A stretch of 44,789 nt of DNA, taken from sequence record OZ035822.1. One strand, 5' to 3'. A model generated the notes under the pieces. It saw only the letters and a program-made list of their open reading frames with translations, ran no database searches and was not told the DNA's origin. This document shows, piece by piece, positions 1 to 44,789 of the stretch. Source of the DNA: Vectrevirus PDP21P6. Within the stretch, counting starts at the first letter, position 1. Every line of letters begins with the position of its first letter. The translations under genes and the position numbers were made by a program.

Positions 1-29
1 TGTAAAATACAAAGCTAGGAGAGATAAGC

Positions 30-329
30 GTGAGCGTACATAACAAACATGCAGCTACAGAAGACGAGGTTGGCATTCTGCATGGTGCTATTACCAAAAT
101 CTTCAATAAGAAAGCACAGGCAATACTGGACACTATAGAAGAAGACCCTGATGCAGCATTACATTTAGTGTCTGGTAAGGATATTGGTGCGATGTGTAAG
201 TGGGTTCTTGATAACGGCATTACCGCCACACCTGCTGCACAGCAGGAAGAGTCCAAGTTATCTAAGCGCCTCAAGGCTATCCGAGAGGCATCCAGTGGCA
301 AGATTATTCAGTTTACAAAAGAGGAGTGA
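30..329 (+). CDS. putative terminase small subunit (T7 gene 18 position)
   Basis: 99-aa ORF, GTG start with AGGAG RBS at 17-21; sits between holin and large terminase as in T7; no motif recognised, call is positional. Confidence 0.45.
   Translation: MSVHNKHAATEDEVGILHGAITKIFNKKAQAILDTIEEDPDAALHLVSGKDIGAMCKWVLDNGITATPAAQQEESKLSKRLKAIREASSGKIIQFTKEE
121..143 (+). promoter_or_regulatory. phage RNAP promoter embedded in terS coding sequence
   Basis: CAATACTGGACACTATAGAAGAA matches the genome-wide promoter core, predicted +1 G at 138. Confidence 0.55.
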
Positions 330-330
330 T

Positions 331-774
331 ATGCATAGATGGTGTGAATCTCAAGGTTATACCATCTTACCTTCTGGTGTCATCCTTTCAAAGGGTGGCA
401 CCCCTCTCAAACCATTCAAGGCGGGTAGGGGTTATTTAGCAGTTAAAATTAAAAATAAAGAAGGTAAATGGCGTAATGTCTATGTTCATCAATTAGTGGC
501 TTATAAGTATTTACCTAAAACTAATAATGAAGTAAACCACAAAGACGGCGATAAGCACAACAATGATGTTAGCAACTTGGAGTGGGTAACAAGAAGCGAG
601 AATAACTATTTAAAATGCAATGGAAATGATAGGAGTGCCTTAAATAGCTATTTAGCAAGATTAAAAGATTGCTTCTTGCAAGGTAAGGGTGTAGCAGAAA
701 CCGCTAGACTTACTGGTAAAAGTGAACCAAGAGTTTCTTCTCTCTTTAAGGAGTGGCGAAATGGCAAAGGCTAG
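331..774 (+). CDS. HNH homing endonuclease (HNH_3-like)
   Basis: ATG 331 after GAGGAG RBS; motif VNHKDGDKHNNDVSNLEWVTRSENN plus C-terminal HTH-like tail; inserted between terminase subunit genes, 3' end overlaps terL start. Confidence 0.75.
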   Translation: MHRWCESQGYTILPSGVILSKGGTPLKPFKAGRGYLAVKIKNKEGKWRNVYVHQLVAYKYLPKTNNEVNHKDGDKHNNDVSNLEWVTRSENNYLKCNGNDRSALNSYLARLKDCFLQGKGVAETARLTGKSEPRVSSLFKEWRNGKG

Positions 775-2659
775 AGAATCACAGGCAGAGGCATTAAAGC
801 GGTGGGAAAACCTTAAAGAACTACAAGACACTTTTAAATATACAGCGGAAGGTTTGCTTCTCTTTGCAGACACAGTTATTCATAACTTGATTGCAGGCAA
901 CCCTCATCTGATTCGTATGCAGGCTGATATCTTGAAGTTCCTATTCTACGGACACAAATATCGCCTCATCGAAGCGCCTCGTGGTATCGCTAAGACAACA
1001 CTATCAGCAATCTATACGGTATTCCGTATTATTCATGAACCGCATAAGCGTATCATGGTTGTGTCACAAAATGCTAAGCGAGCAGAGGAAATCGCAGGTT
1101 GGGTGGTGAAAATCTTTCGTGGCCTAGACTTCCTTGAGTTTATGCTGCCGGATATCTACGCAGGGGACCGTGCATCCGTTAAAGCATTTGAGATTCATTA
1201 CACCCTACGTGGTAGCGATAAGTCCCCCTCTGTATCCTGTTACTCAATCGAAGCAGGTATGCAGGGTGCTCGTGCTGATATTATTCTAGCGGATGACGTT
1301 GAATCGATGCAGAATGCTCGTACAGCAGCAGGCCGTGCATTGCTTGAGGAGTTGACCAAGGAATTTGAATCTATTAACCAATTTGGTGACATCATCTACC
1401 TTGGGACACCTCAGAACGTAAACTCTATCTACAATAACTTACCTGCTCGTGGTTACTCTGTTCGTATCTGGACTGCACGTTATCCTTCAGTGGAGCAGGA
1501 GCAATGCTATGGTGACTTCCTTGCACCTATGATTGTGCAGGATATGAAGGACAACCCCGCACTTCGCTCTGGTTATGGGTTGGACGGTAACAGTGGTGCA
1601 CCTTGCGCACCTGAAATGTACGATGATGAAGTGCTGATTGAGAAGGAAATCTCTCAGGGTGCGGCTAAGTTCCAGCTTCAGTTCATGCTTAACACTCGCA
1701 TGATGGATGCTGACAGATACCCACTTCGTCTAAACAATCTCATCTTCACTTCATTCGGTACTGAGGAAGTCCCTGTGATGCCTACGTGGAGCAACGACTC
1801 CATCAACATCATTGGAGATGCACCGAAGTATGGCAATAAACCTACAGACTTCATGTATCGACCTGTGGCTCGCCCCTATGAATGGGGTGCTGTTACCCGC
1901 AAGATTATGTATATCGACCCAGCGGGCGGCGGTAAGAATGGAGATGAAACGGGTGTAGCGATTGTCTTCCTGCACGGCACATTCATTTACGTGTATCAGT
2001 GCTTCGGCGTGCCAGGCGGATACCGCGAATCGTCCCTGAATCGCATTGTGCAGGCCGCAAAGCAGGCTGGTGTTAAAGAGGTATTCATTGAAAAGAACTT
2101 TGGTCATGGCGCGTTTGAGGCGGTAATTAAGCCTTACTTTGAACGAGAATGGCCTGTGACTCTGGAGGAGGATTACGCCACCGGACAGAAAGAGTTGCGT
2201 ATCATTGAGACGCTAGAGCCACTCATGGCGGCCCACAGGCTCATCTTTAACGCAGAGATGGTGAAATCGGACTTTGATTCGGTACAGAACTATCCGCTTG
2301 AGCTACGCATGTCCTACAGCCTTTTCAATCAAATGTCGAACATCACGATTGAGAAGAACAGCCTCCGGCACGATGACCGCTTAGACGCTCTGTATGGCGC
2401 TATACGGCAATTAACTTCTCAGATAGACTATGATGAGGTTACACGGATTAATCGCCTCAGAGCGCAGGAGATGCGCGATTACATCCATGCTATGAACACA
2501 CCTCACCTCCGTAGGGCGATGCTCTATGGAGATTATGGCACTGAGCGAAGAGTAACCAACACTTCCGTGGCTATGCAGCAAAGAGTGTACGGTCAGAATT
2601 ACAGGAGTAAATCGGCAAATCGAAATACACTTTCTGCAAGGATTTCAAGGACTTATTAA
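761..2659 (+). CDS. terminase large subunit (DNA maturase B)
   Basis: ATG 761 with AGGAG RBS 748-752; deviant Walker A PRGIAKTT and Walker B IILADDVE typical of T7 gp19-like terminases; 632 aa. Confidence 0.85.
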   Translation: MAKARESQAEALKRWENLKELQDTFKYTAEGLLLFADTVIHNLIAGNPHLIRMQADILKFLFYGHKYRLIEAPRGIAKTTLSAIYTVFRIIHEPHKRIMVVSQNAKRAEEIAGWVVKIFRGLDFLEFMLPDIYAGDRASVKAFEIHYTLRGSDKSPSVSCYSIEAGMQGARADIILADDVESMQNARTAAGRALLEELTKEFESINQFGDIIYLGTPQNVNSIYNNLPARGYSVRIWTARYPSVEQEQCYGDFLAPMIVQDMKDNPALRSGYGLDGNSGAPCAPEMYDDEVLIEKEISQGAAKFQLQFMLNTRMMDADRYPLRLNNLIFTSFGTEEVPVMPTWSNDSINIIGDAPKYGNKPTDFMYRPVARPYEWGAVTRKIMYIDPAGGGKNGDETGVAIVFLHGTFIYVYQCFGVPGGYRESSLNRIVQAAKQAGVKEVFIEKNFGHGAFEAVIKPYFEREWPVTLEEDYATGQKELRIIETLEPLMAAHRLIFNAEMVKSDFDSVQNYPLELRMSYSLFNQMSNITIEKNSLRHDDRLDALYGAIRQLTSQIDYDEVTRINRLRAQEMRDYIHAMNTPHLRRAMLYGDYGTERRVTNTSVAMQQRVYGQNYRSKSANRNTLSARISRTY

Positions 2660-2680
2660 TTACTGGACACTATAGAAGGA
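2658..2680 (+). promoter_or_regulatory. phage RNAP promoter
   Basis: AATTACTGGACACTATAGAAGGA, +1 G at 2675, directly after terL stop. Confidence 0.7.
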
Positions 2681-2751
2681 AGGCCCAGATAATAAGAGAA
2701 ATAACAAGGATAATATAGGTTAACCTAGGTTATATAGGTATGCCTTAGTAT

Positions 2752-2771
2752 GGGTGTACTCCTGTACACCC
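2752..2771 (+). promoter_or_regulatory. leader stem-loop (possible RNase III site or mRNA-stabilising hairpin)
   Basis: perfect inverted repeat GGGTGTAC-tcct-GTACACCC in the 5' UTR downstream of the 2658 promoter. Confidence 0.4.
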
Positions 2772-2813
2772 TATTCCTTACTTCCTTACTATACTTACAT
2801 AATAGGAGAGAGA

Positions 2814-3092
2814 ATGTCTAATAGTTATAGTACACAACCCCTTACCGGTAAGTCTGCTCGTAAGCAGATACAACCTGTGAGTGAAGCCCTGATGCTTCCT
2901 GTAGTTTACGAGGACACTGTTGAGAAGAAAGGTGATGTTATTAATGATGCCACCAAATCAGGTAAGCAGAAAGGAGCCATGGTGTGTCTTGATACACATG
3001 ATACACTGGTTATTGCTATCGCAGTTGATGGCAAAGAAGATTCCAATTGGCTGACCACGTTATTAGCGGTCACAACTATTACCCCAGCTTAA
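2814..3092 (+). CDS. hypothetical protein, tandem paralog A
   Basis: ATG 2814 with AGGAGAG RBS; 92 aa; shares LPVV..KK.D.IN..SGKQKG.MV...L.IAIA...W..T...TP.A pattern with next ORF. Confidence 0.6.
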   Translation: MSNSYSTQPLTGKSARKQIQPVSEALMLPVVYEDTVEKKGDVINDATKSGKQKGAMVCLDTHDTLVIAIAVDGKEDSNWLTTLLAVTTITPA

Positions 3093-3104
3093 GAGGAGAA
3101 TTAC

Positions 3105-3392
3105 ATGTCTAATTATGGAAACGCAGGTACTGTTACTGGTCAAGCTTTTCGAGTAAAAACTGTACAAACCACTGCAACGGCAATCCCTTTGCCTATTGTT
3201 GCTGAAGCAGACCTTAAGAAGAAAGATCACCCTATCAACATTAAACACCTATCTGGCAAACAGAAAGGCTCCATGGTTGCTGTAGAGAAAGCAGACAACT
3301 CCTTGTACATCGCTATTGCACGTGGTAGTGAACCAACTGACCCTTGGGATGCAACCACTATGGAGGAGACACCTGTAACCCCTGTAGCTTAA
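3105..3392 (+). CDS. hypothetical protein, tandem paralog B
   Basis: 95 aa, AGGAGA RBS, clear paralog of 2814-3092. Confidence 0.6.
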   Translation: MSNYGNAGTVTGQAFRVKTVQTTATAIPLPIVAEADLKKKDHPINIKHLSGKQKGSMVAVEKADNSLYIAIARGSEPTDPWDATTMEETPVTPVA

Positions 3393-3413
3393 TTGTAACA
3401 GATGAGGTCGGTG

Positions 3414-3758
3414 ATGCTTAATAAATACTTCAAGCGACGCGAGTTCGCTTGCCGTTGTGGGTGCGGTACATCCACTGTTGATGCTGAGTTATTACAGGTA
3501 ATCACAGATGTGCGTGAGTACTTCGGTGCTCCTGTGGTTATTACCTCTGGTCATCGCTGTGCAAAGCACAATGCTAAGGTAGGTGGAGCTAAGAACTCCA
3601 TGCATCTTACTGGTAAGGCTGCTGACATTAAGGTACAAGGAATTACACCTTACCGCGTATGGTCTTATCTAACAGCACGCTACCCCAATAAATATGGCAT
3701 TGGGTCTTATCCTAACTTCACCCATATTGATGTACGGAATGGGTGTGCACGATGGTAG
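3414..3758 (+). CDS. endolysin, peptidase M15 family (L-alanyl-D-glutamate peptidase-like)
   Basis: ATG 3414 with GAGGT RBS; motifs ITSGHRCAKHNAKVGGAKNSMHLTGKAADI and FTHID typical of zinc M15 peptidoglycan peptidases. Confidence 0.75.
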   Translation: MLNKYFKRREFACRCGCGTSTVDAELLQVITDVREYFGAPVVITSGHRCAKHNAKVGGAKNSMHLTGKAADIKVQGITPYRVWSYLTARYPNKYGIGSYPNFTHIDVRNGCARW

Positions 3759-3866
3759 GTTGTATTGCATGGTGTGAACGCATGGTTGCTAAGGCTTCAG
3801 AGGAAGGTAACTATGAAGATTGGCAGAACTACTCGACTTTATTGGCTCAATGGAAAGGGAGGTGCA

Positions 3867-4016
3867 ATGAAAAAGCTGTTTAAGTCTAAGAAGGTTGTAG
3901 GTGCATTAGTTGCATTGGCAATTGCTCTTGTTTCTGTAGGTCTTGGCGTAGACCTAGGTGAAGGTACGGAAGGTTCCGTCACTGACGTGGTATGCCAAGT
4001 AATCACCTGTGAATAA
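3867..4016 (+). CDS. small membrane protein (lysis-associated candidate)
   Basis: GGGAGG RBS then ATG 3867; 49 aa with one hydrophobic segment VVGALVALAIALVSVGL. Confidence 0.35.
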   Translation: MKKLFKSKKVVGALVALAIALVSVGLGVDLGEGTEGSVTDVVCQVITCE

Positions 4017-4230
4017 GGTACTTGAGGTGGTGGCAGGTCTTATTGGCCTGCTGCTTGCCGCTAAGAAAAAGAAGGAAGAGAAGGAGGCACAAAGTGAGGC
4101 GAATCATGCTAGCGACAATCCTGCTGATTGGTTCGCTGATCACTTCAGGGTGTCAGACGGCGTTACCAGAGAATCCAAAGGTAAAGCCCCTGAAGCCGAC
4201 GCTGACGGCAGTTTACGAGGTGGACGATAA
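4009..4230 (+). CDS. putative i-spanin (Rz-like)
   Basis: 73 aa, GTG start, N-terminal TM segment then charged region; overlaps a downstream out-of-frame lipoprotein ORF; short for an i-spanin. Confidence 0.4.
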   Translation: MNKVLEVVAGLIGLLLAAKKKKEEKEAQSEANHASDNPADWFADHFRVSDGVTRESKGKAPEADADGSLRGGR

Positions 4231-4303
4231 GGTCTGCTTCAGTAAGCCTGACGCTACACAATTAGGTCTGTACATTCTCTCGCTAGAACGCGGGTATAAT
4301 TAA
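4106..4303 (+). CDS. putative o-spanin (Rz1-like lipoprotein)
   Basis: ATG 4106 after AGGAGG; MLATILLIGSLITSGC signal with lipobox-like TSGC then proline-rich short mature region; overlapped architecture with 4009-4230. Confidence 0.5.
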   Translation: MLATILLIGSLITSGCQTALPENPKVKPLKPTLTAVYEVDDKVCFSKPDATQLGLYILSLERGYN

Positions 4304-4332
4304 TACATAGTTTTATGTATCAGTGTCTTACG

Positions 4333-4355
4333 ATTTACTGGACACTATAGAAGAG
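4333..4355 (+). promoter_or_regulatory. phage RNAP promoter
   Basis: ATTTACTGGACACTATAGAAGAG, +1 G at 4350, upstream of tailspike 1. Confidence 0.7.
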
Positions 4356-4434
4356 ATAAGATAGTGCCGTTCTTTTGAGCGGCCTATTACTAGCCAATCT
4401 TCATGGTGAGGGTTGGGAAGTAATAGGAGATAAA

Positions 4435-6342
4435 ATGGCTAAATTAACCAAACCTAATACTGAAGGAATCTTGCATAAGGAAGACTCTTTGTATGAGTAC
4501 CTTGATGCGAGAGAGAGTATAGTTTTAACATCAAAGCCGTTTGGTGCAGTAGGTGATGCTACTACTGATGATACGGAGGTTATAGCTGCTTCACTAAACT
4601 CTCAAAAAGCTGTCACAGTCTCAGACGGTGTATTCTCTAGCTCTGGTATTAATAGTAATTACTGTAACTTAGACGGTAGAGGTAGCGGGGTGCTAAGTCA
4701 CCGTTCCAGTACAGGTAACTACTTAGTATTTAACAATCTACGTGCAGGTCGCTTAAGTAATATTACGGTAGAGAGTAATAAGGCGACTGATGATACTCAG
4801 GGGCAGCAGGTATCTCTTGCTGGTGGCAGTGATGTTACTGTAAGTGACGTTAACTTCTCAAACGTTAAAGGTACTGGTTTCAGTTTAATAGCATACCCTA
4901 ATGGTGCGCAACCTAATGGGCTTATGATTAAAGGCATTCGAGGTAGCTACTCTGGCTATGCTACTAATAAGGCTGCTGGATGCGTACTTGCTGACTCCTC
5001 AGTTAACTCTCTCATAGATAACGTCATTGCTAAGAGCTATCCTCAGTTCGGAGCTGTAGAGCTGAAAGGTACAGCCAGTTATAACATAGTAAGTAATGTT
5101 ATAGGGGCAGATTGCCAGCATGTAACTTACAACGGCACTGAAGGGCCAATAGCTCCTTCTAATAACCTTATCAAGGGGGTGATGGCTAATAACCCTAAGT
5201 ATGCAGCGGTTGTTGCAGGAAAAGGAAGTACGAACTTAATCTCAGACGTGCTCGTAGATTACTCAACTTCTGATGCTAGGCAGGCTCATGGTGTTACCGT
5301 AGAAGGATCTGATAACGTCATAAATAATGTGCTTATGTCAGGATGTGATGGTACTAACTCTTTAGGACAAGGGCAGACTGCTACAATTGCACGCTTTATA
5401 GGTACAGCTAATAACAACTATGCGTCTGTATTTCCTAGCTACAGTGCTACAGGTGTTATTACCTTCGAACCCGGCTCTACCCGTAACTTCGTAGAGGTAA
5501 AGCACCCTGGCAGGAGAAACGACCTTCTCAGTTCTGCTAGTACTATTGACGGTGCAGCTACTATTGACGGCACTAGTAATAGTAACGTAGTGCACGCACC
5601 TGCATTAGGACAGTACATAGGTAGTATGTCAGGTAGGTTCGAATGGCGGATTAAGTCCATGTCACTCCCTTCAGGCGTTCTTACTTCTGCTGATAAGTAC
5701 AGAATGCTTGGAGATGGTGCTGTGTCATTAGCTGTAGGTGGGGGCACTTCTTCTCAAGTTCGCCTATTTACTTCTGATGGTACTTCTCGGACAGTGTCCC
5801 TCACCAACGGTAACGTGCGTCTTTCTACCAGTAGCACAGGCTTTTTGCAGTTAGGCGCTGATGCAATGACCCCAGACAGTACTGGTACATACGCATTAGG
5901 TTCCGCCAGCCGAGCATGGTCTGGCGGTTTTACTCAAGCAGCATTCACTGTTACCTCAGATGCTCGGTGTAAAACAGAACCTCTTACTATCTCAGATGCC
6001 TTACTGGATGCTTGGTCTGAAGTTGACTTTGTGCAGTTTCAGTATTTGGATCGTGTTGAGGAGAAGGGTGCAGACTCAGCTAGATGGCACTTCGGTATCA
6101 TCGCTCAGCGAGCTAAGGAGGCTTTCGAACGTCACGGTATAGATGCACATCGCTATGGCTTCTTGTGCTTCGACAGTTGGGATGATGTATACGAGGAAGA
6201 TGCCGATGGCTCTCGTAAACTGATTACACCAGCAGGTTCCCGCTACGGTATTCGTTACGAGGAAGTGCTGATATTAGAGGCTGCGTTGATGCGGAGGACT
6301 ATTAAGCGTATGCAGGAAGCACTAGCTTCCCTGCCTAAGTAA
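4435..6342 (+). CDS. tailspike 1 (beta-helix depolymerase-like) with C-terminal intramolecular chaperone domain
   Basis: ATG 4435 with AGGAGA RBS; N-terminal GAVGDATTDDT pectate-lyase-like signature; C-terminal SDARCK...HFGIIAQRAKEAF segment resembles peptidase S74 autocleaving chaperone. Confidence 0.8.
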   Translation: MAKLTKPNTEGILHKEDSLYEYLDARESIVLTSKPFGAVGDATTDDTEVIAASLNSQKAVTVSDGVFSSSGINSNYCNLDGRGSGVLSHRSSTGNYLVFNNLRAGRLSNITVESNKATDDTQGQQVSLAGGSDVTVSDVNFSNVKGTGFSLIAYPNGAQPNGLMIKGIRGSYSGYATNKAAGCVLADSSVNSLIDNVIAKSYPQFGAVELKGTASYNIVSNVIGADCQHVTYNGTEGPIAPSNNLIKGVMANNPKYAAVVAGKGSTNLISDVLVDYSTSDARQAHGVTVEGSDNVINNVLMSGCDGTNSLGQGQTATIARFIGTANNNYASVFPSYSATGVITFEPGSTRNFVEVKHPGRRNDLLSSASTIDGAATIDGTSNSNVVHAPALGQYIGSMSGRFEWRIKSMSLPSGVLTSADKYRMLGDGAVSLAVGGGTSSQVRLFTSDGTSRTVSLTNGNVRLSTSSTGFLQLGADAMTPDSTGTYALGSASRAWSGGFTQAAFTVTSDARCKTEPLTISDALLDAWSEVDFVQFQYLDRVEEKGADSARWHFGIIAQRAKEAFERHGIDAHRYGFLCFDSWDDVYEEDADGSRKLITPAGSRYGIRYEEVLILEAALMRRTIKRMQEALASLPK

Positions 6343-6349
6343 GCAACAG

Positions 6350-6372
6350 GCAGTGCGTAAGCACTGCTTTTC
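6350..6372 (+). terminator. intrinsic terminator-like hairpin
   Basis: GCAGTGC-gtaa-GCACTGC followed by TTTTCACGCAACTTTTCTT. Confidence 0.55.
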
Positions 6373-6427
6373 ACGCAACTTTTCTTAAAGGTTATCATGG
6401 TGGTAGCCTTTCAGAAAAGGAGGTTAC

Positions 6428-8224
6428 ATGCTTCAAAGATTAAGCACTGCCTTGGTGCGGTATAAAAGTAAAATGTCAGGTGCAATAGGTCGTATATTGC
6501 AAGAAAGACTAGAAGATACGTTAAATGCAAAAGACTTTGGTGCAAAATGTAATGGAGTGGATGATGATACAATCCCTCTCAACAATGCAGCAACAGCAGC
6601 ACGCCTTAAAGGAGTCAAACTCGTAATAACAGGGTCTTGCCTAACAACTGACACAGTTAACTTTAGAGAGGTACTGCTAGAGGCATCAAGTGCTACATTT
6701 ATTATTAAACACGAGGGTGTTGGTGTTATCTTGGGTGGTAATGCAAGTGTGCACAATAACCCCAAGCAAGAGTTTGGTATGACAGAAAGACTTGTTGGGT
6801 CTGCATCTCTAGACACCCCTGATGTACGTATAATGGGTGCCAAGTGCCAACACATTAGCATAGAGAAGTCTGATTACCTTCAGCTATATGCAGATTCAGA
6901 TGAATCAGTATATGAAAAGGACTACTCTATCGCGTATTCCACTTTTACCTTAAAGTATGTTAAAACAATCAACATACGCGGGATTAATCGTGGTTGGATT
7001 AATGAGAACCAGTTCTTCTTAAATAGAACACATTTTGTGACAATACAAGATGGCAATTACTCTCATAACCACAATAAATTCTTTGGTGGCACTATGGAAG
7101 AGAAAGGTGCTATAGATATACAGAGAGGTCATAATAATCACTTCTTTGGGCTTCGATTCGAAAGAGATGGCTCTAAGCCAGATAGAACACTAGACATCAA
7201 GTTTGGTTCTTATACATGGAATAATTCAATTGAAGCATCGTGGCTTAGCTCTGCTGCATATAGCAACGAACCATATAACCCAAATAATCTTGTCACTGTT
7301 ACAGATTTAGGTAGAGGTAATGCTGTACGCCATATACAAGAAGATTTAACAGATGAGATCCCTTTGCTTTCACTAAGTGGAAAGGCAGACTACATCTCTA
7401 GTACCAACCTAGGTACTGTAAGCCAACCTGTTGTTATAACTAACTTCCCTAATATATATAATATTAGACACCTAGTATCAAGCAAGTTTTCTGTTGTAAG
7501 AAATTTCTACCCTATATGGGAGTCTGGTAATTTAGAGGTAAGGAATGGAGACTTATTCACATTCTGCTCTGATGTACCTATCTTCCGTATGCGTCTATTT
7601 ATATTAGATGCGCAAGGTAATGTAATCACTGAGCAATTAGATGATGATGTATCATTCCCTGGTAGTTCTTGGAATGCACAATTAAGTATGTATACAAATA
7701 CTACCAATATTGATGTTGCTAAAATACGTGTCACTAATAGTTCTCGTATTAAATACATTCGTCTTGTCTTGATGTCTGGTGGTTCATCTCAAGATAGAGT
7801 CTTTGAATATGCAAGAGTGACTGCAAGATACTATAAGTATTCAAGCTCAACACCTCGTAAGAATATGGATGTTGCCTTAACCTCTTGCTCTGCTATTATG
7901 CCTTATAAGGGCGATGCAGAGATGCAATATATTGGTTACGGTCTGCCTGTTGTTAAGATGGAAGATACGACTAAGAAGGTTAATATAACACGTAATAGGT
8001 ATTCTGTTATTAATGTGTCTGGTTCTTCTATTAAGGTAAGGGTTTCAGGTAGTCTTATATCCGCAGACTCTAACGACTTACATCTTGTATATACAGAGGG
8101 TTCCGCTAATAAAATTATACCTATTCAGTCTTTATCGGATGATACTATTACTTTAACTTCTACTGCACCTACTACTATAGTAGCTAATAGCATGGTAGAT
8201 GTAGTTTGTACAAAGCAGGTGTGA
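6428..8224 (+). CDS. tailspike 2 (beta-helix depolymerase-like)
   Basis: ATG 6428 with AGGAGG RBS; N-terminal DFGAKCNGVDDDT pectate-lyase-like signature; 598 aa; no adaptor domain. Confidence 0.75.
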   Translation: MLQRLSTALVRYKSKMSGAIGRILQERLEDTLNAKDFGAKCNGVDDDTIPLNNAATAARLKGVKLVITGSCLTTDTVNFREVLLEASSATFIIKHEGVGVILGGNASVHNNPKQEFGMTERLVGSASLDTPDVRIMGAKCQHISIEKSDYLQLYADSDESVYEKDYSIAYSTFTLKYVKTINIRGINRGWINENQFFLNRTHFVTIQDGNYSHNHNKFFGGTMEEKGAIDIQRGHNNHFFGLRFERDGSKPDRTLDIKFGSYTWNNSIEASWLSSAAYSNEPYNPNNLVTVTDLGRGNAVRHIQEDLTDEIPLLSLSGKADYISSTNLGTVSQPVVITNFPNIYNIRHLVSSKFSVVRNFYPIWESGNLEVRNGDLFTFCSDVPIFRMRLFILDAQGNVITEQLDDDVSFPGSSWNAQLSMYTNTTNIDVAKIRVTNSSRIKYIRLVLMSGGSSQDRVFEYARVTARYYKYSSSTPRKNMDVALTSCSAIMPYKGDAEMQYIGYGLPVVKMEDTTKKVNITRNRYSVINVSGSSIKVRVSGSLISADSNDLHLVYTEGSANKIIPIQSLSDDTITLTSTAPTTIVANSMVDVVCTKQV

Positions 8225-8230
8225 GGTAAT

Positions 8231-8380: not shown

Positions 8381-8450
8381 GCAGGTTAATATCTTAGTGT
8401 ACACAAGGGCAGACCTAGGTTTGCTCTTAGTGTATTTCAAAGGAGGTAAC

Positions 8451-10197: not shown

Positions 10198-10204
10198 ATA
10201 ACTG

Positions 10205-10643: not shown

Positions 10644-10651
10644 GGTGTAAC

Positions 10652-36736: not shown

Positions 36737-37458
36737 TGGCTATAGGTTCAGCCGTTATGGCTGGTATGTCTTCTATTGGTAGTATGTTTGCAGGTAGCGG
36801 TACAGCAGCCGCTGCTGGAGGTGCTGCCGCAGGTGGCGGAGGTTTGCTAGGTTCATTAGGTGGCTTCCTAAGCGGTTCCACTGCTGGCTTCTCTAATGCG
36901 GGTCTTCTTGGTGCTGGCCTTCAAGGGTTAGGATTGATTGGTGATCTCTTTGGTGGAAGTGATGAAGCCAAGGCCATGAAGAAAGCACAAGAAGAGCAAT
37001 GGCGGCAGCAGCTTATTGCTACACAAGAGGCGTACAAGACAGTGGCAGACGCAGAGCGTTCTGCTGCTAAACAATATCATGCAGATGCAATAAGCAATCA
37101 GGCTTCACTACTACAGCAGCGAGCACAGGTTGCATTACTAGCAGGTGCTACTGGTACTGGTGGTAACTCTGTATCTTCTATGCTGAATGACTTAGCAGCA
37201 GAGGGCGGGAGGAACCAGAGTACAATTATTGATAACTATGAGAATCAGAAGATTAACTTCACTAATCAGCTTAAGTCCATCCAGCGAGGTGGGCAGATGC
37301 AGATGCGTGAGTTTAAGAAACCTTCTGCTGTGAGCACCTTGGTTCAAGGTATCCCAAGTCTGGCTTCTGCTTATGTAACTGGTAGCAAGTCGGGTATGGC
37401 TTTAGGTAAAGCTCTAACGGATTCTCGTACATACTCATCTGGAACAAGAGGTATTTAA
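36736..37458 (+). CDS. internal virion protein (gp14-like)
   Basis: 240 aa, Gly/Ala-rich N-terminal region; start overlaps upstream stop. Confidence 0.6.
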   Translation: MAIGSAVMAGMSSIGSMFAGSGTAAAAGGAAAGGGGLLGSLGGFLSGSTAGFSNAGLLGAGLQGLGLIGDLFGGSDEAKAMKKAQEEQWRQQLIATQEAYKTVADAERSAAKQYHADAISNQASLLQQRAQVALLAGATGTGGNSVSSMLNDLAAEGGRNQSTIIDNYENQKINFTNQLKSIQRGGQMQMREFKKPSAVSTLVQGIPSLASAYVTGSKSGMALGKALTDSRTYSSGTRGI

Positions 37459-40406
37459 TGGCAATTGAGCGACAAGCAGTACAAGGTCTGCCACAAGTGC
37501 AGGCCACTTCTCCTAATGTCATGACCTTTGCACCTCAACAAGTGGGAGGTGTGGAGGCGGGCGTAGCTTCTACCTCCGGTAGTCGATTTATCGAAGACCT
37601 TATTCGAGCAGCCAGCAGTGTAGCTGATGTTACCACTGGTATCCTTAATCAGAAGATTGAGGAGGATAAGGTTGTTCAAATGGAACGGGCATATAATGGA
37701 TTAATGCCTTCTGAGGATGCAACTCGTGGTGGCGCTCGTGCTAACATGCTTGTCAAAGCTCAACTGCTAGCTAATGATGAAGCAGCACGAATGAAAGACA
37801 TGGCTACTCGTTTCCAAGGAACAGATGACGAGTGGACACAACTCATGGTTGACTCTCGTAATGAGATGCAGAATAAGCTGTTCCAGCAATACCCTGAGTT
37901 GCAAGGTGACAAAGATACTATGCGTATGGTCACTAATGTCTTCCAAGAACAGCAGCCTCAGATTTGGGCTACACGAACCCAGCATAAACTTGACCGTGAA
38001 CAAGCAGACCGTGAGGACACCTTTGACGGGCGAGTGGCTTCTACTTGGGATTCTAGTATTGACCCAGAGGCTTCTGGTTATGCCCTACAGGAGCGAATCC
38101 GCGAGGGGTTTACTCAAGGGCTATTACCTGAGCAGATGCATAAGAAGCTGGTAGAGCGAGCTATTTCACTTGCTCAGGGTGGTGATATTAGCATGGCTGA
38201 AGCCTTGAAGTACGTGAAGGACGATAAGGGTGTTTCTGTCTATGCTAAGAATCCGCAGCTTATCACAGCTATCACTAATGGTAATGCAGTTTGGGCTAGG
38301 AATAATGTTGCTGATGTGACTCGCATGTCTTTTGAAGTCAAAGAGTCCTATCTTGCAGGTGACTTGACGGATGAAGAATTACTGGAGCGAGCACAGCACA
38401 TTAATAGCCTGACAGGGAACTCTGTCTTCTCTAATCCAGAACTAGAAGCACTGATGCGACAACGAGCTAAGCAGAATGCAGAGCTAGGTGCAATGCAGGA
38501 TATGCGACGTGAACTTTACTCTGATCGCATGACTGGCTTCCAAGGTAAGACAGATAAAGAGAAGAAAGCTTACGTTGACGTTATCAAACAAGATAGCCAA
38601 CTTTATGCAGACCAGCAAATCAAACAACGTGGCTTGGACCCTTACAGTCAAGAGGCTGAAGCTATTCGTGGTGCAGTGGAAGTGCAGCGCCTGCAATTCA
38701 TGAACTCCAAAGGCTTAGTGGATGATACCTTTGAGTCTCGTATCAAAGCCATGGAGTCTATGCTATCGCCTGAGCACTTTGCCAGTGGCGAACCACAGGA
38801 GTTAATGACTATTCGTCAGTTGTGGGAACAGTTACCAGAAGAAAGCCGAGGTGTCTTTGGTGATACGGTGAATGGCTATATGGATAACTACAACACTGCA
38901 TTACAAATGGGAGAGACGCCTTTGCAGGCTGCAAGGTTTGCCCGTGAAGCACAGCAGAAATTCTCTCGTACTGAGAAAGAAACCAAGAAGTTCAACTCAG
39001 CTATTGGAGATGCACTGGATGAGGTATCGGGTGCTGGCTGGTTTGATGGTAAAACCGAAGTGTCTGACTTAGGTAAAGCTATTGCAGAAGAAGAGTTACG
39101 AGCTAAGGCCAATATGCTGTGGTCTAGCGGTATGCGTAACATGGATTCCATCAAGAAGGCTTTAATTACTTGGGGCAATAAACGCTACACTCAATCAGAG
39201 GATGCAAAGACTTCCGGTGGTTATTTCATTAAAGGTGATTACACTTCTGCATCTGACATGCTTATGTCTGTTGGGAAAGGTGTAAACCCTACCGATGTAC
39301 CTCTGGCGCTTGGTAGGTATGTAGAAACACAAATGCCAGAATTGAAGAAGGAACTTCAAGAGTGGGAAACTAAGGATGATGTATACATTGATTACAATGA
39401 ACAGAAAGGTACTTTCGTGATTCGTGCTGGTGCAGCAGGTCGCCCTCTTTCTGGAGTAATCCCTGTCACCTCTTTAGATACCACTTCACTGCTAGACTCT
39501 GCCTATCAGAAGAAAGTAGAAGAACGAGATAAAGGTGAATATGTTCACCCATATCGTACAGATATCGGTACACAAGAACCTATGCCAGCTAAGCCAACTG
39601 CCAAGGATATTGGTAAATTTGGACTAGCTAATTTCCTCATGTCTTCTGCCTTTGCTTCTGGTGAGAATCTACCTTCTAACTTCGAGATTAACTATAGAGG
39701 CAATATGCAACAATTCTATGACAAGCTAGCTATGGATGAGAATAAAGATAAAGTTGGCTTTAATAAGGCAACTGGAACCTTTACTCCATATAAAGACGCT
39801 CGCGGTGAGTCTATCGGTTACGGTCATTTCTTAACGGAAGAAGAGAAGCGAAACGGGTATATTAAGATTGGTGATGAACTAGTTCCCTATCGAGGGTCTA
39901 TGTCTCAGCTTACAGAGAGCAAGGCTCGCGCTCTTATGGAGCAAGATGCTAAGAAGCATGTGCCTCCTACTCGTGACTGGAAGATTCCGTTTGACCAGAT
40001 GCATCCTGCACAGCAACGTGGCTTGATGGATTTAACCTACAATTTAGGTAAAGGTGGAATCCAGAACTCACCGCGTGCTCTTGCTGCATTCAAAGCTGGT
40101 AAGCTTACGGAAGGCTTTATCGAAATGCTGGGCACTGCATCAAGTGAAGGTAAGCGTATTCCTGGCCTACTGAAGCGACGCGCTGAGGCATACAATATGG
40201 CATCTGCTGGTGGTGTGCCTAAGATTACCGAAGTGGAGACTCGTGAAGATGGCTCCATGTGGGTTAGGTTTGGTGGACCTATGCCAGCAGGTTCTGTCTC
40301 GGCATGGACTCATAAACGTATTGGCGAGGATGGTTGGTATCAGGTTTATGAGTCTGCACCTACCAAGTTAGCTAAAGGTTCTAAGGTAGGTAAAGTTAAG
40401 TTGTAG
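37458..40406 (+). CDS. internal virion protein (gp15-like) with C-terminal GH24-like lysozyme domain
   Basis: 982 aa; C-terminal segment YKDARGESIGYGHFLT ... LMDLTYNLGKGG ... GLLKRRAEAYN resembles T4-type lysozyme. Confidence 0.8.
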   Translation: MAIERQAVQGLPQVQATSPNVMTFAPQQVGGVEAGVASTSGSRFIEDLIRAASSVADVTTGILNQKIEEDKVVQMERAYNGLMPSEDATRGGARANMLVKAQLLANDEAARMKDMATRFQGTDDEWTQLMVDSRNEMQNKLFQQYPELQGDKDTMRMVTNVFQEQQPQIWATRTQHKLDREQADREDTFDGRVASTWDSSIDPEASGYALQERIREGFTQGLLPEQMHKKLVERAISLAQGGDISMAEALKYVKDDKGVSVYAKNPQLITAITNGNAVWARNNVADVTRMSFEVKESYLAGDLTDEELLERAQHINSLTGNSVFSNPELEALMRQRAKQNAELGAMQDMRRELYSDRMTGFQGKTDKEKKAYVDVIKQDSQLYADQQIKQRGLDPYSQEAEAIRGAVEVQRLQFMNSKGLVDDTFESRIKAMESMLSPEHFASGEPQELMTIRQLWEQLPEESRGVFGDTVNGYMDNYNTALQMGETPLQAARFAREAQQKFSRTEKETKKFNSAIGDALDEVSGAGWFDGKTEVSDLGKAIAEEELRAKANMLWSSGMRNMDSIKKALITWGNKRYTQSEDAKTSGGYFIKGDYTSASDMLMSVGKGVNPTDVPLALGRYVETQMPELKKELQEWETKDDVYIDYNEQKGTFVIRAGAAGRPLSGVIPVTSLDTTSLLDSAYQKKVEERDKGEYVHPYRTDIGTQEPMPAKPTAKDIGKFGLANFLMSSAFASGENLPSNFEINYRGNMQQFYDKLAMDENKDKVGFNKATGTFTPYKDARGESIGYGHFLTEEEKRNGYIKIGDELVPYRGSMSQLTESKARALMEQDAKKHVPPTRDWKIPFDQMHPAQQRGLMDLTYNLGKGGIQNSPRALAAFKAGKLTEGFIEMLGTASSEGKRIPGLLKRRAEAYNMASAGGVPKITEVETREDGSMWVRFGGPMPAGSVSAWTHKRIGEDGWYQVYESAPTKLAKGSKVGKVKL

Positions 40407-40417
40407 TACCTAACTCA

Positions 40418-40446
40418 AGGCTTGTCTCACATGTGAGACAGGTCTT
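40418..40446 (+). terminator. terminator-like hairpin containing palindrome copy 6
   Basis: AAGGCTTGTCTCACATGTGAGACAGGTCTTT (core GTCTCACATGTGAGAC at 40424-40439). Confidence 0.5.
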
Positions 40447-40471
40447 TATGATAGGCACTATGGAGGGAATT

Positions 40472-43400
40472 ATGGAACAAGACATTAAGACTAATTGGGC
40501 TGGATATGTCCAGTCTACTCCTGAGCCGTTTTCTATTGAGGCGGCTCCGGTATCGGCTCCTACGATACGCCAGCGTAATGAGTTACAAGAGCAAGTTCTT
40601 GAAGCTAAAGCTGACGCTGATATCTTAGGTGCTGTAGGTGCTGCCTTCCAGAATGAGTGGTTGGCATTCGGAGGCAAGCGGTGGTATGACCGTGCCACTG
40701 CTGATTTCACACCTCAACCAGACTTTGAGATACAACCTGAGCAACGTGAAGCACTACGTTTCAAATATGGTACGGATATGATGCAGACAATCACTGAGGG
40801 TGTTCGTTCTGAGGATGAATTGAACTTCCGTATTCAGAATGCTGATGAAGACCTTGAGCGCAATAAGCGCATTGCTCAGGCTGGCTGGGTTGGCTCTGTG
40901 GCGACGATTGGCGCTGCTGTGCTTGACCCTGTGGGATGGGTTGCCTCTATTCCAACCGGTGGTGCCGCTAAAGTTGGACTCGTAGGCCGTGCTGTGCGTG
41001 GCGCTATCGCCGCTGGCGTAAGTAATGCCGCTATTGAATCCGTATTGGTCCAAGGTGACATGACTCGTGATTTAGATGACATTATGGTAGCACTAGGTTC
41101 CGGTATGGCTATGGGTGGCGTTATTGGCGCTGTAGCGCGTGGTAGGGCCGCTAAGCTCAGTGAGCAAGGTGATGACAGGGCTGCGAACGTTGTGCGCAGT
41201 GCAGACGCAGGGGACCGCTATGTGCGTGCTGTTGCTGATGATAGTATCGGTGCGATGCGTGTTAAGGGTGAAGAGGTACTCACTGAGGGTGCATTTGATA
41301 TCTCTAGCAAAGGTGAAGATTTGCTGAAAACCCTACAGCGGGAAGGTAATGCAATTGATATGACCCCTCGCCGCTGGGCCGGAACTCTGTCTGCCCTTGG
41401 TACTGTCGTACATTCCTCTCAGGATGCAAGTGTACGCGGCCTTGGTGCTCGCCTGTTTGAGTCTCCGCAAGGCTTAGGTATGCAGAAGGCCTCTGCTAGT
41501 CTCATGCAGAATACTAATTTGAACCGTCTGAAATCTGCTGATATGAACCGCTTCAATGATGGGTTTGATTTGTGGCTTAAAGAGAATAATATCAATCCAG
41601 TAGCAGGACATACCAACTCTCACTATGTGCAGCAATATAATGAGAAGGTATGGGAAGCTGTACGCATCGGTATGGATGAGTCTACGCCTAAGTCTATCCG
41701 TATGGCAGCAGAGGGTCAGCAAGCTATGTATCGTGAAGCATTAGCATTACGGAAGCGCTCTGGTGAAGCTGGTTTTGAAAACATTAAAGCGGATGATAAG
41801 TATATGCCTGATATCTTTGACACTATGAAAGCTCGCCGTCAATTTGATAGGATAGGAAAGGATATAGATAAAGAAGACATCATCGAACTTTTCTCTCGTG
41901 CCTACCAGAATGGCGCTCGTAAGATTCCAAAGGAAGCAGCAGATGAGATTGCACGAGCACAGGTAAATCGCGTTGCTGATGCTACCTTAACTGGAAATCT
42001 TAGTTTTGAAAAGGCAATGTCAGGTCAGACTAAGGCAGAGTATGAAGCTATCATGCGTAAGGCAGGCTTCAGTGATGAAGAAATTGAAAAGATGGTAGAA
42101 GCTCTGGATAACAAAGAAACCAGAGATAACATCTCTAACCGAGCTAAAATGAGTTTAGGATTAGATGTTACTCAAGAGTACAATGGCATTCGTATGCGTG
42201 ACTTCATGAATACCAACGTGGAAGAGCTAACAGATAACTATATGAAGGAAGCAGCAGGTGGCGCTGCATTGGCTCGCCAAGGCTTCTCTACCTATCAGGC
42301 TGCACTTAATGCAATTGACCTTGTAGAGCGAAATGCACGAAACGCGGCTAATGGTAGCAAGGCTAGTTTGGCATTAGATGAAGAGATTCGTCAGATGCGA
42401 GAAGGTCTTCGCCTGATTATGGGCAAGTCGATTGATGCAGACCCACAAGCTATATCTACTAAGATGATGCGTCGTGGTCGTGATATCACAGGTGTGCTTC
42501 GCTTAGGTCAGATGGGCTTCGCACAGCTAGGTGAACTTGCTAACTTCATGGGTGAGTTTGGTATTGCTGCCACCACTATGGCTTTAGGTAAGCAATTCCG
42601 CTTCACCTCTAAGGCGTTGCGTAATGGCGATGGCTTCTTTCGAGATAAGAATTTAGCTGAGGTTGAGCGAATGGTAGGTTACATCGGTGAGGATAACTGG
42701 CTAACAACTAAGGGTGCACGTCCTGATGAATTTGGTGATGTAACCACAGTAAGAGGGATGATGGCTCACTTCGACCAATCCATGAACTCAATACGTCGTG
42801 CTCAAACCAACCTATCACTCTTCCGCATGGCACAGGGTTCTCTGGAGCGAATGACCAATAGGCAAATAGCTTTGTCTTTCATTGACCACCTTGAAGGCAA
42901 GAAGATTATTCCTCAGAAGAAACTGGAGGAACTTGGTCTTACTCAGGAGTTCATGACTAATCTACAGAAGCACTATGATGCTAACTCTAAAGGTTCTGGC
43001 TTGCTTGGCTTTGATACAATGCCTTATGCCATGGGTGAAACTTTAGCTAATGCTATTCGTCGTAAGTCAGGTCTAATTATCCAACGTAACTTCATTGGTG
43101 ATGAAGGTGTCTGGATGAACAAAGCACTAGGTAAGACATTTGCACAGCTTAAGTCATTCTCTCTTGTATCTGGTGAGAAGCAATTTGGTCGAGGGATTCG
43201 CCACGATAAAATTGGTCTTGCTAAGAAGACAGCTTACGGGTTTGCTTTGGGTTCAATAGTGTATGCGGCAAAAGCCTATGTGAACTCTATTGGGCGAGAA
43301 GACCAAGATGAATATCTGGAAGAGAAACTATCCCCTAAAGGGTTGGCTTTTGGCGCTATGGGTATGATGAGTACAACTGCTGTGTTTAGCTTAGGTGGAG

Positions 43401-43669
43401 ACTTCTTAGGCGGCCTAGGTGTTCTCCCTTCTGAGTTAGTACAATCCCGTTATGAGGCTGGCTTTCAGACTAAGGGTTTGATAGACCAAATACCACTAGT
43501 AGGTGTTGGTCAAGATGCATATCGTTTAGCAGATTCTATAACTAAATATGCAGAGGGTGATACAGAAGGTGTAGATGTGGCACGTAGGGCTTTACGCTTA
43601 GTGCCTCTAACTAATGTAATAGGAATCCAGAACGCACTGCGTTATGGCTTAGATGAACTGGAGGATTGA
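40472..43669 (+). CDS. internal virion protein (gp16-like)
   Basis: ATG 40472 with GGAGGG RBS; 1065 aa with Gly/Ala-rich segments; T7 gene 16 position. Confidence 0.75.
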   Translation: MEQDIKTNWAGYVQSTPEPFSIEAAPVSAPTIRQRNELQEQVLEAKADADILGAVGAAFQNEWLAFGGKRWYDRATADFTPQPDFEIQPEQREALRFKYGTDMMQTITEGVRSEDELNFRIQNADEDLERNKRIAQAGWVGSVATIGAAVLDPVGWVASIPTGGAAKVGLVGRAVRGAIAAGVSNAAIESVLVQGDMTRDLDDIMVALGSGMAMGGVIGAVARGRAAKLSEQGDDRAANVVRSADAGDRYVRAVADDSIGAMRVKGEEVLTEGAFDISSKGEDLLKTLQREGNAIDMTPRRWAGTLSALGTVVHSSQDASVRGLGARLFESPQGLGMQKASASLMQNTNLNRLKSADMNRFNDGFDLWLKENNINPVAGHTNSHYVQQYNEKVWEAVRIGMDESTPKSIRMAAEGQQAMYREALALRKRSGEAGFENIKADDKYMPDIFDTMKARRQFDRIGKDIDKEDIIELFSRAYQNGARKIPKEAADEIARAQVNRVADATLTGNLSFEKAMSGQTKAEYEAIMRKAGFSDEEIEKMVEALDNKETRDNISNRAKMSLGLDVTQEYNGIRMRDFMNTNVEELTDNYMKEAAGGAALARQGFSTYQAALNAIDLVERNARNAANGSKASLALDEEIRQMREGLRLIMGKSIDADPQAISTKMMRRGRDITGVLRLGQMGFAQLGELANFMGEFGIAATTMALGKQFRFTSKALRNGDGFFRDKNLAEVERMVGYIGEDNWLTTKGARPDEFGDVTTVRGMMAHFDQSMNSIRRAQTNLSLFRMAQGSLERMTNRQIALSFIDHLEGKKIIPQKKLEELGLTQEFMTNLQKHYDANSKGSGLLGFDTMPYAMGETLANAIRRKSGLIIQRNFIGDEGVWMNKALGKTFAQLKSFSLVSGEKQFGRGIRHDKIGLAKKTAYGFALGSIVYAAKAYVNSIGREDQDEYLEEKLSPKGLAFGAMGMMSTTAVFSLGGDFLGGLGVLPSELVQSRYEAGFQTKGLIDQIPLVGVGQDAYRLADSITKYAEGDTEGVDVARRALRLVPLTNVIGIQNALRYGLDELED

Positions 43670-44631
43670 TGAGTTATACTTTCACAGAACATATAGCCAA
43701 CGGTACGCAAGTAACCTATCCCTTTAGATTTGCTGGCAGGGATAAAGGCTATCTTCGTGCCTCAGATGTGATAGTGGAATCTCTTCAAGGTAACACTTGG
43801 ATTGAGGTTACATCTGGCTGGCAATTAACTGGTACGCATCAAATCACTTTTGATGTAGCACCTGTTGCAGGTTTGAAGTTCCGTATTCGAAGGGAAGTAC
43901 AAAAGGAATATCCATACGCTGAGTTTGACCGTGGTGTTACCTTGGATATGAAGTCTTTAAATGGCTCTTTCATTCATATACTGGAGATTACACAGGAGTT
44001 ACTTGACGGGTTTTATCCAGAAGGATACTTCATTAAACAGAATGTAAGCTGGGGCGGCAATAAGATTACTGATTTGGCTGATGGCACAAATCCGGGAGAT
44101 GCAGTAAATAAAGGGCAGCTTGATGCCATTGACAAGAAGCATACAGATTGGAACACCAAACAGGATATTGAGATTGCTGGCCTTAAAGCAGGTATGACTT
44201 CTGGTATTGCGCACAGAACTATCCCTTGGTACACGATCGCCCAAGGAGGTGAGGTTTCCGTAAAACCTCCTTATGAATTTCAAGATGCACTAGTTTTCCT
44301 TAATGGGGTCTTGCAACACCAAATCGTAGGCGCATACTCTATAAGCAGCAACACTATCACTTTCGCAGAGCCACTTGTGGCTGGCACAGAGGTGTATGTG
44401 CTGATTGGCAGTCGTGTGGCTACATCTGAACCTAATATTCAGTTAGAGTTGAACTTTGACTTAGTAGAAGGCCAACAAGTAGTACAGATTGGCTCTGCAT
44501 TTAAGTACATTGAGGTCTACCTTGATGGATTATTACAACCTAAACTTGCTTATCAGGTAGACGGTGACATTGTTACTTTCTCAGAAAGAGTACCAGAATG
44601 CCGGATGACTGCTAAGATTATCACAGCATAA
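43669..44631 (+). CDS. tail fiber adaptor protein (T7 gp17 N-terminal domain-like)
   Basis: 320 aa; N-terminal region matches the pattern of the T7 gp17 tail-attachment domain; no receptor-binding domain. Confidence 0.7.
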   Translation: MSYTFTEHIANGTQVTYPFRFAGRDKGYLRASDVIVESLQGNTWIEVTSGWQLTGTHQITFDVAPVAGLKFRIRREVQKEYPYAEFDRGVTLDMKSLNGSFIHILEITQELLDGFYPEGYFIKQNVSWGGNKITDLADGTNPGDAVNKGQLDAIDKKHTDWNTKQDIEIAGLKAGMTSGIAHRTIPWYTIAQGGEVSVKPPYEFQDALVFLNGVLQHQIVGAYSISSNTITFAEPLVAGTEVYVLIGSRVATSEPNIQLELNFDLVEGQQVVQIGSAFKYIEVYLDGLLQPKLAYQVDGDIVTFSERVPECRMTAKIITA

Positions 44632-44640
44632 GGAGGTGGG

Positions 44641-44789
44641 ATGATTAACTCAGAACTGGTAGATAGTGGTGTGAAGCTTGCGCCACCTGCATTAGTCTCA
44701 GGTGGGTACTTCCTCGGTATCAGTTGGAATGATTGGGTTCTTATAGCTACATTCATTTATACTGTATTACAAATTGGCGATTGGTTTTA
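44641..44789 (+). CDS. class II holin (T7 gp17.5-like), 3'-truncated at window end
   Basis: AGGAGG RBS then ATG 44641; MINSELVDSGVKLAPPALVSGGYFLGISWNDWVLIATFIYTVLQIGDWF resembles T7 holin; frame continues into bases 1-43 if the ends are joined. Confidence 0.6.
   Translation, partial: MINSELVDSGVKLAPPALVSGGYFLGISWNDWVLIATFIYTVLQIGDWF

Follow-up and report, generated by a model that had tools for sequence, protein, structure and literature searches.

The holin gene divided between the two ends of the Vectrevirus PDP21P6 record is an artefact of where the record was opened

Introduction

The sequence record of the bacteriophage Vectrevirus PDP21P6 (OZ035822.1), which comprises 44,789 nt and is analysed here over its whole length as the window, breaks off within an open reading frame (ORF) that resembles a holin gene, and its opening bases appear to supply the remainder of the same ORF. 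This locus raises the question of whether the two ends of the record are true ends of the phage genome, with a truncated gene at one terminus, or neighbouring positions of a sequence that was opened inside a gene. A preliminary description of the sequence had taken the second view, regarding the window as a circular permutation of a complete SP6-like genome whose holin ORF spans the junction. The phage was isolated on Escherichia coli PDP21, a strain of phylogroup D and sequence type 69 (ST69) that carries a K5 capsule, and is listed at 44,789 bp in the supplementary tables of the study that describes the Guelin collection; the same host yielded several phages that are close relatives (Gaborieau et al., bioRxiv 10.1101/2023.11.22.567924). 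Genomes in this collection were assembled from Illumina reads with SPAdes as single contigs, with no determination of termini, and the published methods name only SPAdes, Bandage, and Prokka and include no re-orientation step (Gaborieau et al., bioRxiv 10.1101/2023.11.22.567924).

We report that the split holin gene is an artefact of where the record was opened and not a biological feature. The window very probably represents the complete unique sequence of a Vectrevirus genome, in which a terminal repeat was collapsed during short-read assembly and the resulting circular-looking contig was opened at an arbitrary base in codon 50 of the holin gene. Coordinates below are those of the window, and all genes lie on its plus strand.

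Results

A 63-residue holin is encoded across the ends of the record

The reading frame that begins with the ATG at positions 44641-44643, preceded by the ribosome-binding site GGAGG, stays open to base 44789, giving a 5′ part (44641-44789, +) of 49 full codons and two further bases. These two bases, the last of the record, begin codon 50, a TAT (Tyr) whose third letter is base 1, and the 3′ part (1-43, +) continues with 13 codons and a TAA stop at 41-43. Joining the two parts yields a gp38-type class II holin of 63 amino acids, MINSELVDSGVKLAPPALVSGGYFLGISWNDWVLIATFIYTVLQIGDWFYVKYKARRDKRERT, with a basic tail, VKYKARRDKRERT, in which 7 of the 13 residues are basic. The product therefore has the length, tail, and stop that had been anticipated in the preliminary description. 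The chance that 14 codons remain open past an arbitrary join is about one half, and therefore the continuity of the ORF alone is no proof that the ends belong together.

Profile comparisons of the joined product are more informative. It matches PF10746, the T7 holin family, with 87.5 bits against a cutoff of 25.4 over residues 4-55, and its alignment to phrog_920 (holin) spans residues 1-62 and thus passes through the join. Identity to the holins of phages K1-5, K1E, and SP6 amounts to 87%, 86%, and 73%, respectively, and the split residue, Y50, is invariant among these three proteins. Kyte-Doolittle hydropathy, which is not a dedicated topology predictor, indicates that residues ~32-49 are clearly hydrophobic and residues ~13-27 moderately so. 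By its full-length profile match, the joined ORF is assigned to the T7-type class II holin family.

The T7 holin of this family, gp17.5, is likewise small, with a hydrophobic core and a basic C-terminus as in gp38 of PDP21P6. The gene for gp17.5 lies between the tail-fibre gene and the gene for the small terminase subunit (terS), a position that we take to be the counterpart of that of gp38 between the adaptor gene and terS. Unlike the T7 context, PDP21P6 adds a separate cassette of endolysin, gp44, and spanin-like genes downstream of the gene for the large terminase subunit (terL). As judged from sequence and position, gp38 is a homologue of T7 gp17.5 with a predicted membrane-permeabilising role. 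KBNP1315, a distant SP6-like phage, has a protein in the position of gp38 that moderately inhibited growth and enhanced lysis by the endolysin (PMC4640515).

The join is contiguous in related phages and in an independent assembly

A 740-nt query spanning the join produced a single gap-free alignment to each of 27 phage records that start elsewhere, including K1-5, where the match (34978-35697) lies under genes 37, 38, 39, and 40. The annotated gene order at the join in these relatives is tail fibre, holin, and terS. In addition, a look-up of the exact gp37 and tailspike 2 proteins located the Logan contig ERR12949588_0 (19,346 bp), which was assembled independently from a public sequencing run and matches the window at 100% with no gaps. 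Two stretches of this contig (6,963 and 18,552 bp) occur letter for letter in the circularised window, where they cover positions 40669-44789 and 1-14979, and among the genes called on the contig is one for a 63-aa PF10746 protein at the join. The source could in principle have continued differently beyond base 44789, as the preliminary description had allowed; a contig that crosses the join with zero mismatches excludes this.

These data bear directly on whether the window ends might mark the true termini of a linear genome, with the holin gene truncated or reduced to a pseudogene at a terminus. Such a reading would account for an ORF that is cut by the window end and for the lack of a terminal repeat at the window ends, between which we sought an exact overlap or repeat and found none. 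It is nevertheless refuted by the independent assembly, and the 27 homologous genomes are contiguous at the same place, such that we give it practically no credence. The terminal repeat characteristic of the group, moreover, maps to positions 8609-8912 and not to the window ends. The choice of the cut site also appears to lie in data handling. The sibling ENA records PDP21P3 and LI10P5 end in ...GGTTTTA and start at the homologous holin base, and most other OZ0358xx Vectrevirus records align base for base from their start, with record position 18 corresponding to window position 18, or 1 to 1. Siblings cut at an identical base therefore point to a shared processing convention. Base 1 of the window lies 29 nt upstream of the terS start.

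A terminal repeat is present in a single, probably collapsed copy

Exact direct terminal repeats are present in the records of K1-5 (234 bp), K1E (288 bp), SP6 (174 bp), and VEc3 (304 bp). When the circularised ends were aligned, all of these repeats mapped to one place in the window, 8606/8610-8912, with both boundaries conserved. The left edge falls between ...GTCAGC and TCTCTCGCCCTCGCCCTCGCCGGG at 8606-8610, where the boundary sequence TCTCGCCCTCGCC... is retained, and the right edge falls between ...GTGGGCTA and TCTGTTCG at 8912; the ends of VEc3 map to 8609 and 8912. A self-BLAST of the window for a second copy of the region 8560-8960 found none. Positions 8609-8912 (+) are thus consistent with a single collapsed copy of a direct terminal repeat of ~304 bp, with the left end of virion DNA predicted at 8606-8610 and the right end at 8912. 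The predicted virion genome would run from 8609 to 44789 and on from 1 to 8912, a length of ~45,093 bp, with 8609-8912 at both ends, starting with TCGCCCTCGCC and ending with GTGGGCTA.

A 36-nt element, ACCAAAGTCAAAATTTTGATATAGGCGTGTGTCAGC, adjoins the left edge of the repeat (8570-8605, +) and is near-invariant in SP6, K1-5, K1E, and PDP21P6. The interior of the repeat diverges among these phages while the element stays conserved, and we consider it a candidate signal for terminase action or concatemer processing.

We also weighed the possibility that the virion DNA is truly circularly permuted through headful packaging and lacks a fixed terminal repeat. The assembly does behave like a closed circle in which each sequence is represented once, and short-read assemblies of permuted genomes look alike. 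Against this, the terminase is of the T7 type and 98% identical to that of K1-5, exact terminal repeats occur in K1-5, K1E, SP6, and VEc3, and both the boundaries TCTCGCCCTCGCC and GTGGGCTA and the 36-nt element are conserved in the window. Headful packaging is therefore very unlikely; as homology to these phages indicates, the virion DNA is almost certainly a linear molecule whose ends are fixed. The term circular permutation consequently holds for the record but in all likelihood not for virion DNA, the relatives having fixed ends with direct terminal repeats. The genome can be called complete in the sense that all of its unique sequence is present, but the record lacks a second copy of the repeat.

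Two points weigh against the reading of a collapsed repeat and an arbitrarily opened contig. Base 1 does not coincide with the edge of a codon in the holin gene or in terS, and it is by homology with K1-5, K1E, SP6, and VEc3 that the physical ends and a doubling of 8609-8912 are proposed.

The window contains 20 copies of the heptamer CTTAGTG, as compared with 7.6 expected, and 13 of these copies, all on the plus strand, are clustered at 8393-9518, in the 1.1 kb around the repeat. Short repeat arrays flank the terminal repeat of T7, and the CTTAGTG cluster is reminiscent of them. To the right of the repeat lies a non-coding left-end or early control region (8913-9566, +) that contains clustered CTTAGTG copies and a host-type promoter, TTGACA-17-TACATT, at 9317-9345. 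Two small ORFs (8231-8380 and 8451-8570) are found to its left.

PDP21P6 belongs to the genus Vectrevirus

Megablast searches with both halves of the window returned only phages of the SP6/K1-5 group, the best matches being ENA records named Vectrevirus; for PDP21P3, 90% of the first 25 kb aligned, with an identity of 96%. By local blastn, the rotated window is collinear with each of the three references, with a coverage of 88% at 90.7% identity for K1-5, 86% at 90.3% for K1E, and 68% at 75.9% for SP6. After rotation to position 8606, 46 of the 52 annotated K1-5 proteins were recovered in unbroken order. The six that have no counterpart in the window, gp3 (Ocr-like), gp5, gp12, gp13.5, gp14, and gp49, are products of small accessory ORFs.

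We calculated genome-wide similarities with our own re-implementation of the VIRIDIC formula and read them against the lines of the International Committee on Taxonomy of Viruses (ICTV), which lie at ~70% nucleotide similarity across the genome for a genus and at 95% for a species. The values are 87.6 for PDP21P3, 82.9 for LI10P5, 82.0 for VEc3, 80.8 for K1-5, 77.6 for K1E, and 53.6 for SP6. With at least 70% similarity to K1-5, K1E, and VEc3, PDP21P6 belongs to the genus Vectrevirus. Placement in Zindervirus, the genus of SP6 proper, was rejected on the 53.6% similarity to SP6, which is under 70%. The source table assigns PDP21_P6 to the species Vectrevirus VEc3 (Gaborieau et al., bioRxiv 10.1101/2023.11.22.567924). 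The 82.0% similarity to VEc3 does not reach the 95% line, and the highest value for any record compared is the 87.6% for PDP21P3; lying under 95% to all of these records, PDP21P6 may constitute a separate species.

PDP21P6 is a lytic E. coli podophage of the Molineuxvirinae, in Vectrevirus, the sister genus of SP6's Zindervirus. It displays the SP6/K1-5 architecture of this subfamily, with a single-subunit RNA polymerase (RNAP) encoded early and all genes on one strand, in the order RNAP, replication genes, structural genes, adaptor, holin, terS, terL, lysis genes, and tailspikes. All core functions were found, namely RNAP, primase/helicase, DNA polymerase, exonuclease, endonuclease VII, ligase, portal, scaffold, capsid, tail tube A and B, three internal virion proteins, adaptor, holin, terS, and terL. 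Searches of the window for tRNAs (ARAGORN) and for RNA families (Rfam, gathering thresholds) found neither. The preliminary description had read the window as a full T7-supergroup gene set in canonical order once rotated, and had placed it with SP6 and K1-5 rather than T7 proper on the basis of its tailspikes and promoter core. The recovered K1-5 gene order, the two tailspikes downstream of the terminase, the core ACACTATAGAAG, and the synteny all agree with that view; the label SP6-like holds for the SP6/K1-5 group and not for SP6 itself, the genus being that of K1-5 and K1E.

Individual proteins give a similar picture. The RNAP (875 aa, 12081-14708) is 98.3% identical to that of K1-5, 97.8% to that of K1E, and 85.2% to that of SP6. 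In addition to its RNAP and gene order, K1-5 (AY370674; Vectrevirus K15) shares the portal (the head-tail connector, 29790-31340; 99.2%), the large terminase subunit (98.4%), the adaptor gp37 (97.8%), the K5 lyase (97.3%), the promoter consensus ATTTACTGGACACTATAGAAG at equivalent positions, and the overlap of holin and terS. PDP21P6 differs from K1-5 in that its second tailspike is not a K1 endosialidase, in having two extra HNH genes, in its capsid protein (84.6% identity), and in a repeat of ~304 bp as compared with 234 bp, its record being rotated and holding one copy. The closest genome, PDP21P3 (OZ035804/OZ035769), shares tailspike 2 (99%), the record start, and the isolation host PDP21, but is ~800 bp longer, differs in the C-terminus of its holin and in several accessory regions, and falls under the 95% species line. 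VEc3 (NC_047899) has in common with PDP21P6 an HNH gene between terS and terL, the position of a K5-lyase-type tailspike, and the 304-bp repeat, whereas it retains the Ocr-like gene, and its second tail protein is a different one. SP6 (NC_004831; Zindervirus SP6) shares the architecture, the core ACACTATAGAAG, an adaptor with two tailspikes after the terminase, the repeat boundaries, and the holin family; it differs in its RNAP (85% identity), its internal virion proteins (39-42%), and its tailspikes, which are unrelated to those of PDP21P6.

Some genes show mosaicism across genera. The major capsid protein (32337-33542) is nearer to those of K1E (95.5%) and SP6 (93.8%) than to that of K1-5 (84.6%), the nucleotide kinase (27187-27672) is 89% identical to that of SP6 and 65-70% to those of K1-5 and K1E, and an ORF at 21330-21590 matches SP6 alone (92%).

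A genome that is mosaic relative to every reference, from a host that yielded several closely related phages, could also have arisen as a chimeric or mis-joined assembly, for instance of the co-isolated PDP21_P3 and P6, with an artificial join at 44789/1 or elsewhere. The Logan contig, which stems from a single run, nonetheless agrees exactly with the window over 19.3 kb, a span that takes in both the join and the repeat region, the gene order is unbroken, and core genes are neither duplicated nor missing. Mosaicism of accessory genes and tailspikes is, furthermore, normal within Vectrevirus (Gaborieau et al., bioRxiv 10.1101/2023.11.22.567924). A chimeric origin is thus exceedingly improbable, and a faithful assembly of one genome with a collapsed repeat continues to be the explanation that we prefer.

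The adaptor appears to carry a K5 lyase and a divergent second tailspike

Immediately upstream of the holin gene, positions 43669-44631 encode a gp37-type tail adaptor that is 97.8% identical to K1-5 gp37 and matches PDB 7y22 ("tail adaptor protein"). Tailspike 1 (4435-6342), which is 97.3% identical to K1-5 gp46, carries a C-terminal Peptidase_S74 chaperone domain and matches PDB 2x3h ("K5 lyase", KflA) with 1038.7 bits over residues 1-508. By full-length homology, this protein is assigned as a K5 (heparosan) lyase, which fits the K5 capsule of the host PDP21. The main text of the source study contains no statements on a K5 lyase or on the host range for PDP21 (Gaborieau et al., bioRxiv 10.1101/2023.11.22.567924).

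Tailspike 2 (6428-8224) is of the beta-helix depolymerase type. Its adaptor-binding N-terminus, the first ~11% of the protein, is 44% identical to gp47 of K1-5 and K1E, and the rest cannot be aligned to gp47. A search of Pfam gave no match, and a PDB sequence search matched the N-terminal 60 residues only. Among 50,697 phage records, the protein occurs otherwise only in PDP21P3 (99%), the next phage matches being tail proteins of Pasteurella multocida phages at ~29% identity. In a large protein collection, its body is found at 40-57% identity in E. coli proteins with P22-type head-binding or TSP1/Gp66 N-terminal domains, which, to judge from these domains, are prophage tailspikes.

The AlphaFold model of tailspike 2 (pLDDT 87.6) is a right-handed beta-helix, and a Foldseek search with this model returned Klebsiella K2 depolymerases and the Det7 tailspike at a probability of 1.0 with TM-scores of ~0.2, low values that suffice for a fold class but not for a specificity. 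We considered and rejected a K1 endosialidase, given that only the first ~11% aligns with gp47, that Pfam gave no match, and that the model is a beta-helix and not the beta-propeller of an endosialidase. The model instead identifies a predicted depolymerase-type tailspike, an exchange of modules such as occurs routinely in Vectrevirus. The proposal that this depolymerase has a specificity not described so far is tentative, and we regard it as somewhat less probable than its converse. The protein may be directed at the O-antigen of the ST69 O17/O77-group host or at a second type of capsule.

Promoters and candidate control elements

Over the whole window, the promoter core ACACTATAGAAG occurs at 10 sites with at most one mismatch, all on the plus strand, as compared with 0.22 expected. 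An extended consensus, ATTTACTGGACACTATAGAAG, is common to ~13 sites, at positions equivalent to those of the promoters in K1-5 and K1E. The upstream half of these promoters, ATTTACTGG, is of the K1-5/K1E type, as opposed to ATTTAGGTG in SP6, whose promoters read ATTTAGGTGACACTATAGAAG. One phage promoter, AATACTGGACACTATAGAAG, is situated inside terS (121-141, +), and the other cores start at 2667, 4342, 10765, 11113, 14809, 17328, 18058, 21599, 22368, 23514, 27137, and 32275 (+). A second TTGACA-17-TACATT site is located at 10205, and a hairpin followed by a run of T residues forms a terminator after the RNAP gene (~14718-14750).

Two tandem phage promoters (14800-14820 and 14985-15005), with the perfect palindrome GTCTCACATGTGAGAC ahead of each, bracket an AT- and purine-rich stretch between the RNAP and primase genes. 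By analogy with T7, this region (14780-15005, +) is a candidate primary replication origin. The Logan contig ends at the tandem-promoter repeat (14979). A 33-nt direct repeat (94% identity) is present at 17384-17416, in the 3′ region of the primase/helicase gene, and at 40415-40446, just upstream of the gene for internal virion protein C; the contig starts beside the latter copy (~40423).

Terminase, replication, virion, and lysis genes

The small terminase subunit (99 aa, 30-329) has a GTG start, overlaps the 3′ end of the holin gene, and is 98% identical to K1-5 gp39, and the large subunit (632 aa, 761-2659) is 98.4% identical to K1-5 gp40. Between them lies an HNH homing endonuclease gene (331-774) that overlaps the start of terL by 14 nt; an HNH gene is absent at this site in K1-5, K1E, and SP6 and present in VEc3, AAPEc6, and KMB47. 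A second HNH homing endonuclease gene (25653-26126), between the endonuclease VII and phosphoesterase genes, has no counterpart in K1-5, K1E, or SP6. The DNA primase/helicase is encoded at 15383-17371 and the family A DNA polymerase at 18734-21271, and the tail tubular proteins A and B and the three internal virion (ejectosome) proteins are encoded within 33597-43669.

The window has no counterpart of the Ocr-like anti-restriction gene of K1E, SP6, and VEc3 (gp3 in K1-5). In its place is an 89-aa ORF at 10374-10643 (within 10287-10649), which belongs to phrog_3199, has no Pfam match, and could encode an alternative anti-defence protein.

The lysis cassette (3402-4303) lies apart from the junction holin gene, and the genome has two holin candidates. 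The cassette includes an endolysin gene (3414-3758) with a Peptidase_M15_3 domain, whose product looks cytoplasmic, with no signal or signal-arrest-release sequence visible, and the gene for a gp44-like 49-aa protein with a single transmembrane domain (3867-4016), which is labelled "holin" in relatives (phrog_4712). These are followed by two overlapping genes (4009-4303), one at 4009-4230 encoding an Rz-like protein with an N-terminal transmembrane domain and the other at 4106-4303 encoding an Rz1-like protein with the lipobox LITSGC, a homologue of K1-5 gp45. From these features, the pair looks like Rz/Rz1 spanins.

Discussion

The division of the holin gene can be accounted for by two steps in the making of the record. 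Assembly would have merged the two ~304-bp copies of the terminal repeat into one, giving a contig that appears circular, and this contig would then have been written out from the base upstream of terS that now constitutes position 1, thereby splitting the holin gene.

The transcription and packaging scheme of T7/SP6-type phages is well established, and the elements found here would fit it. Adsorption would proceed via the gp37 adaptor bearing the K5 lyase tailspike and the second, beta-helix tailspike. Host RNA polymerase would transcribe the early region from the sigma-70-type promoters at the left end (9317 and 10205), after which the phage RNAP would read the remaining genes, on one strand, from the ~13 promoters of the K1-5 type. 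Replication would generate concatemers, to be cut at the repeat by the T7-type terminase.

PDP21P6 is a known kind of phage with a known kind of record artefact. The split gene itself brings no new biology, and its significance is mainly one of bookkeeping: when the record is annotated as linear, the holin is lost, the termini are misplaced, and the length is under-reported by one repeat (~304 bp). If the record were re-oriented to ~8609 and given a second copy of the repeat, it would be consistent with those of K1-5, K1E, SP6, and VEc3. The only distinctive part of the genome is tailspike 2. If its proposed role as a depolymerase of another specificity is true, PDP21P6 would represent a new two-receptor combination, the K5 capsule together with a second receptor, analogous to that of K1-5 (K1 and K5), and the pairing of this tailspike with a K5 lyase is the one element of practical interest for work on phage host range.

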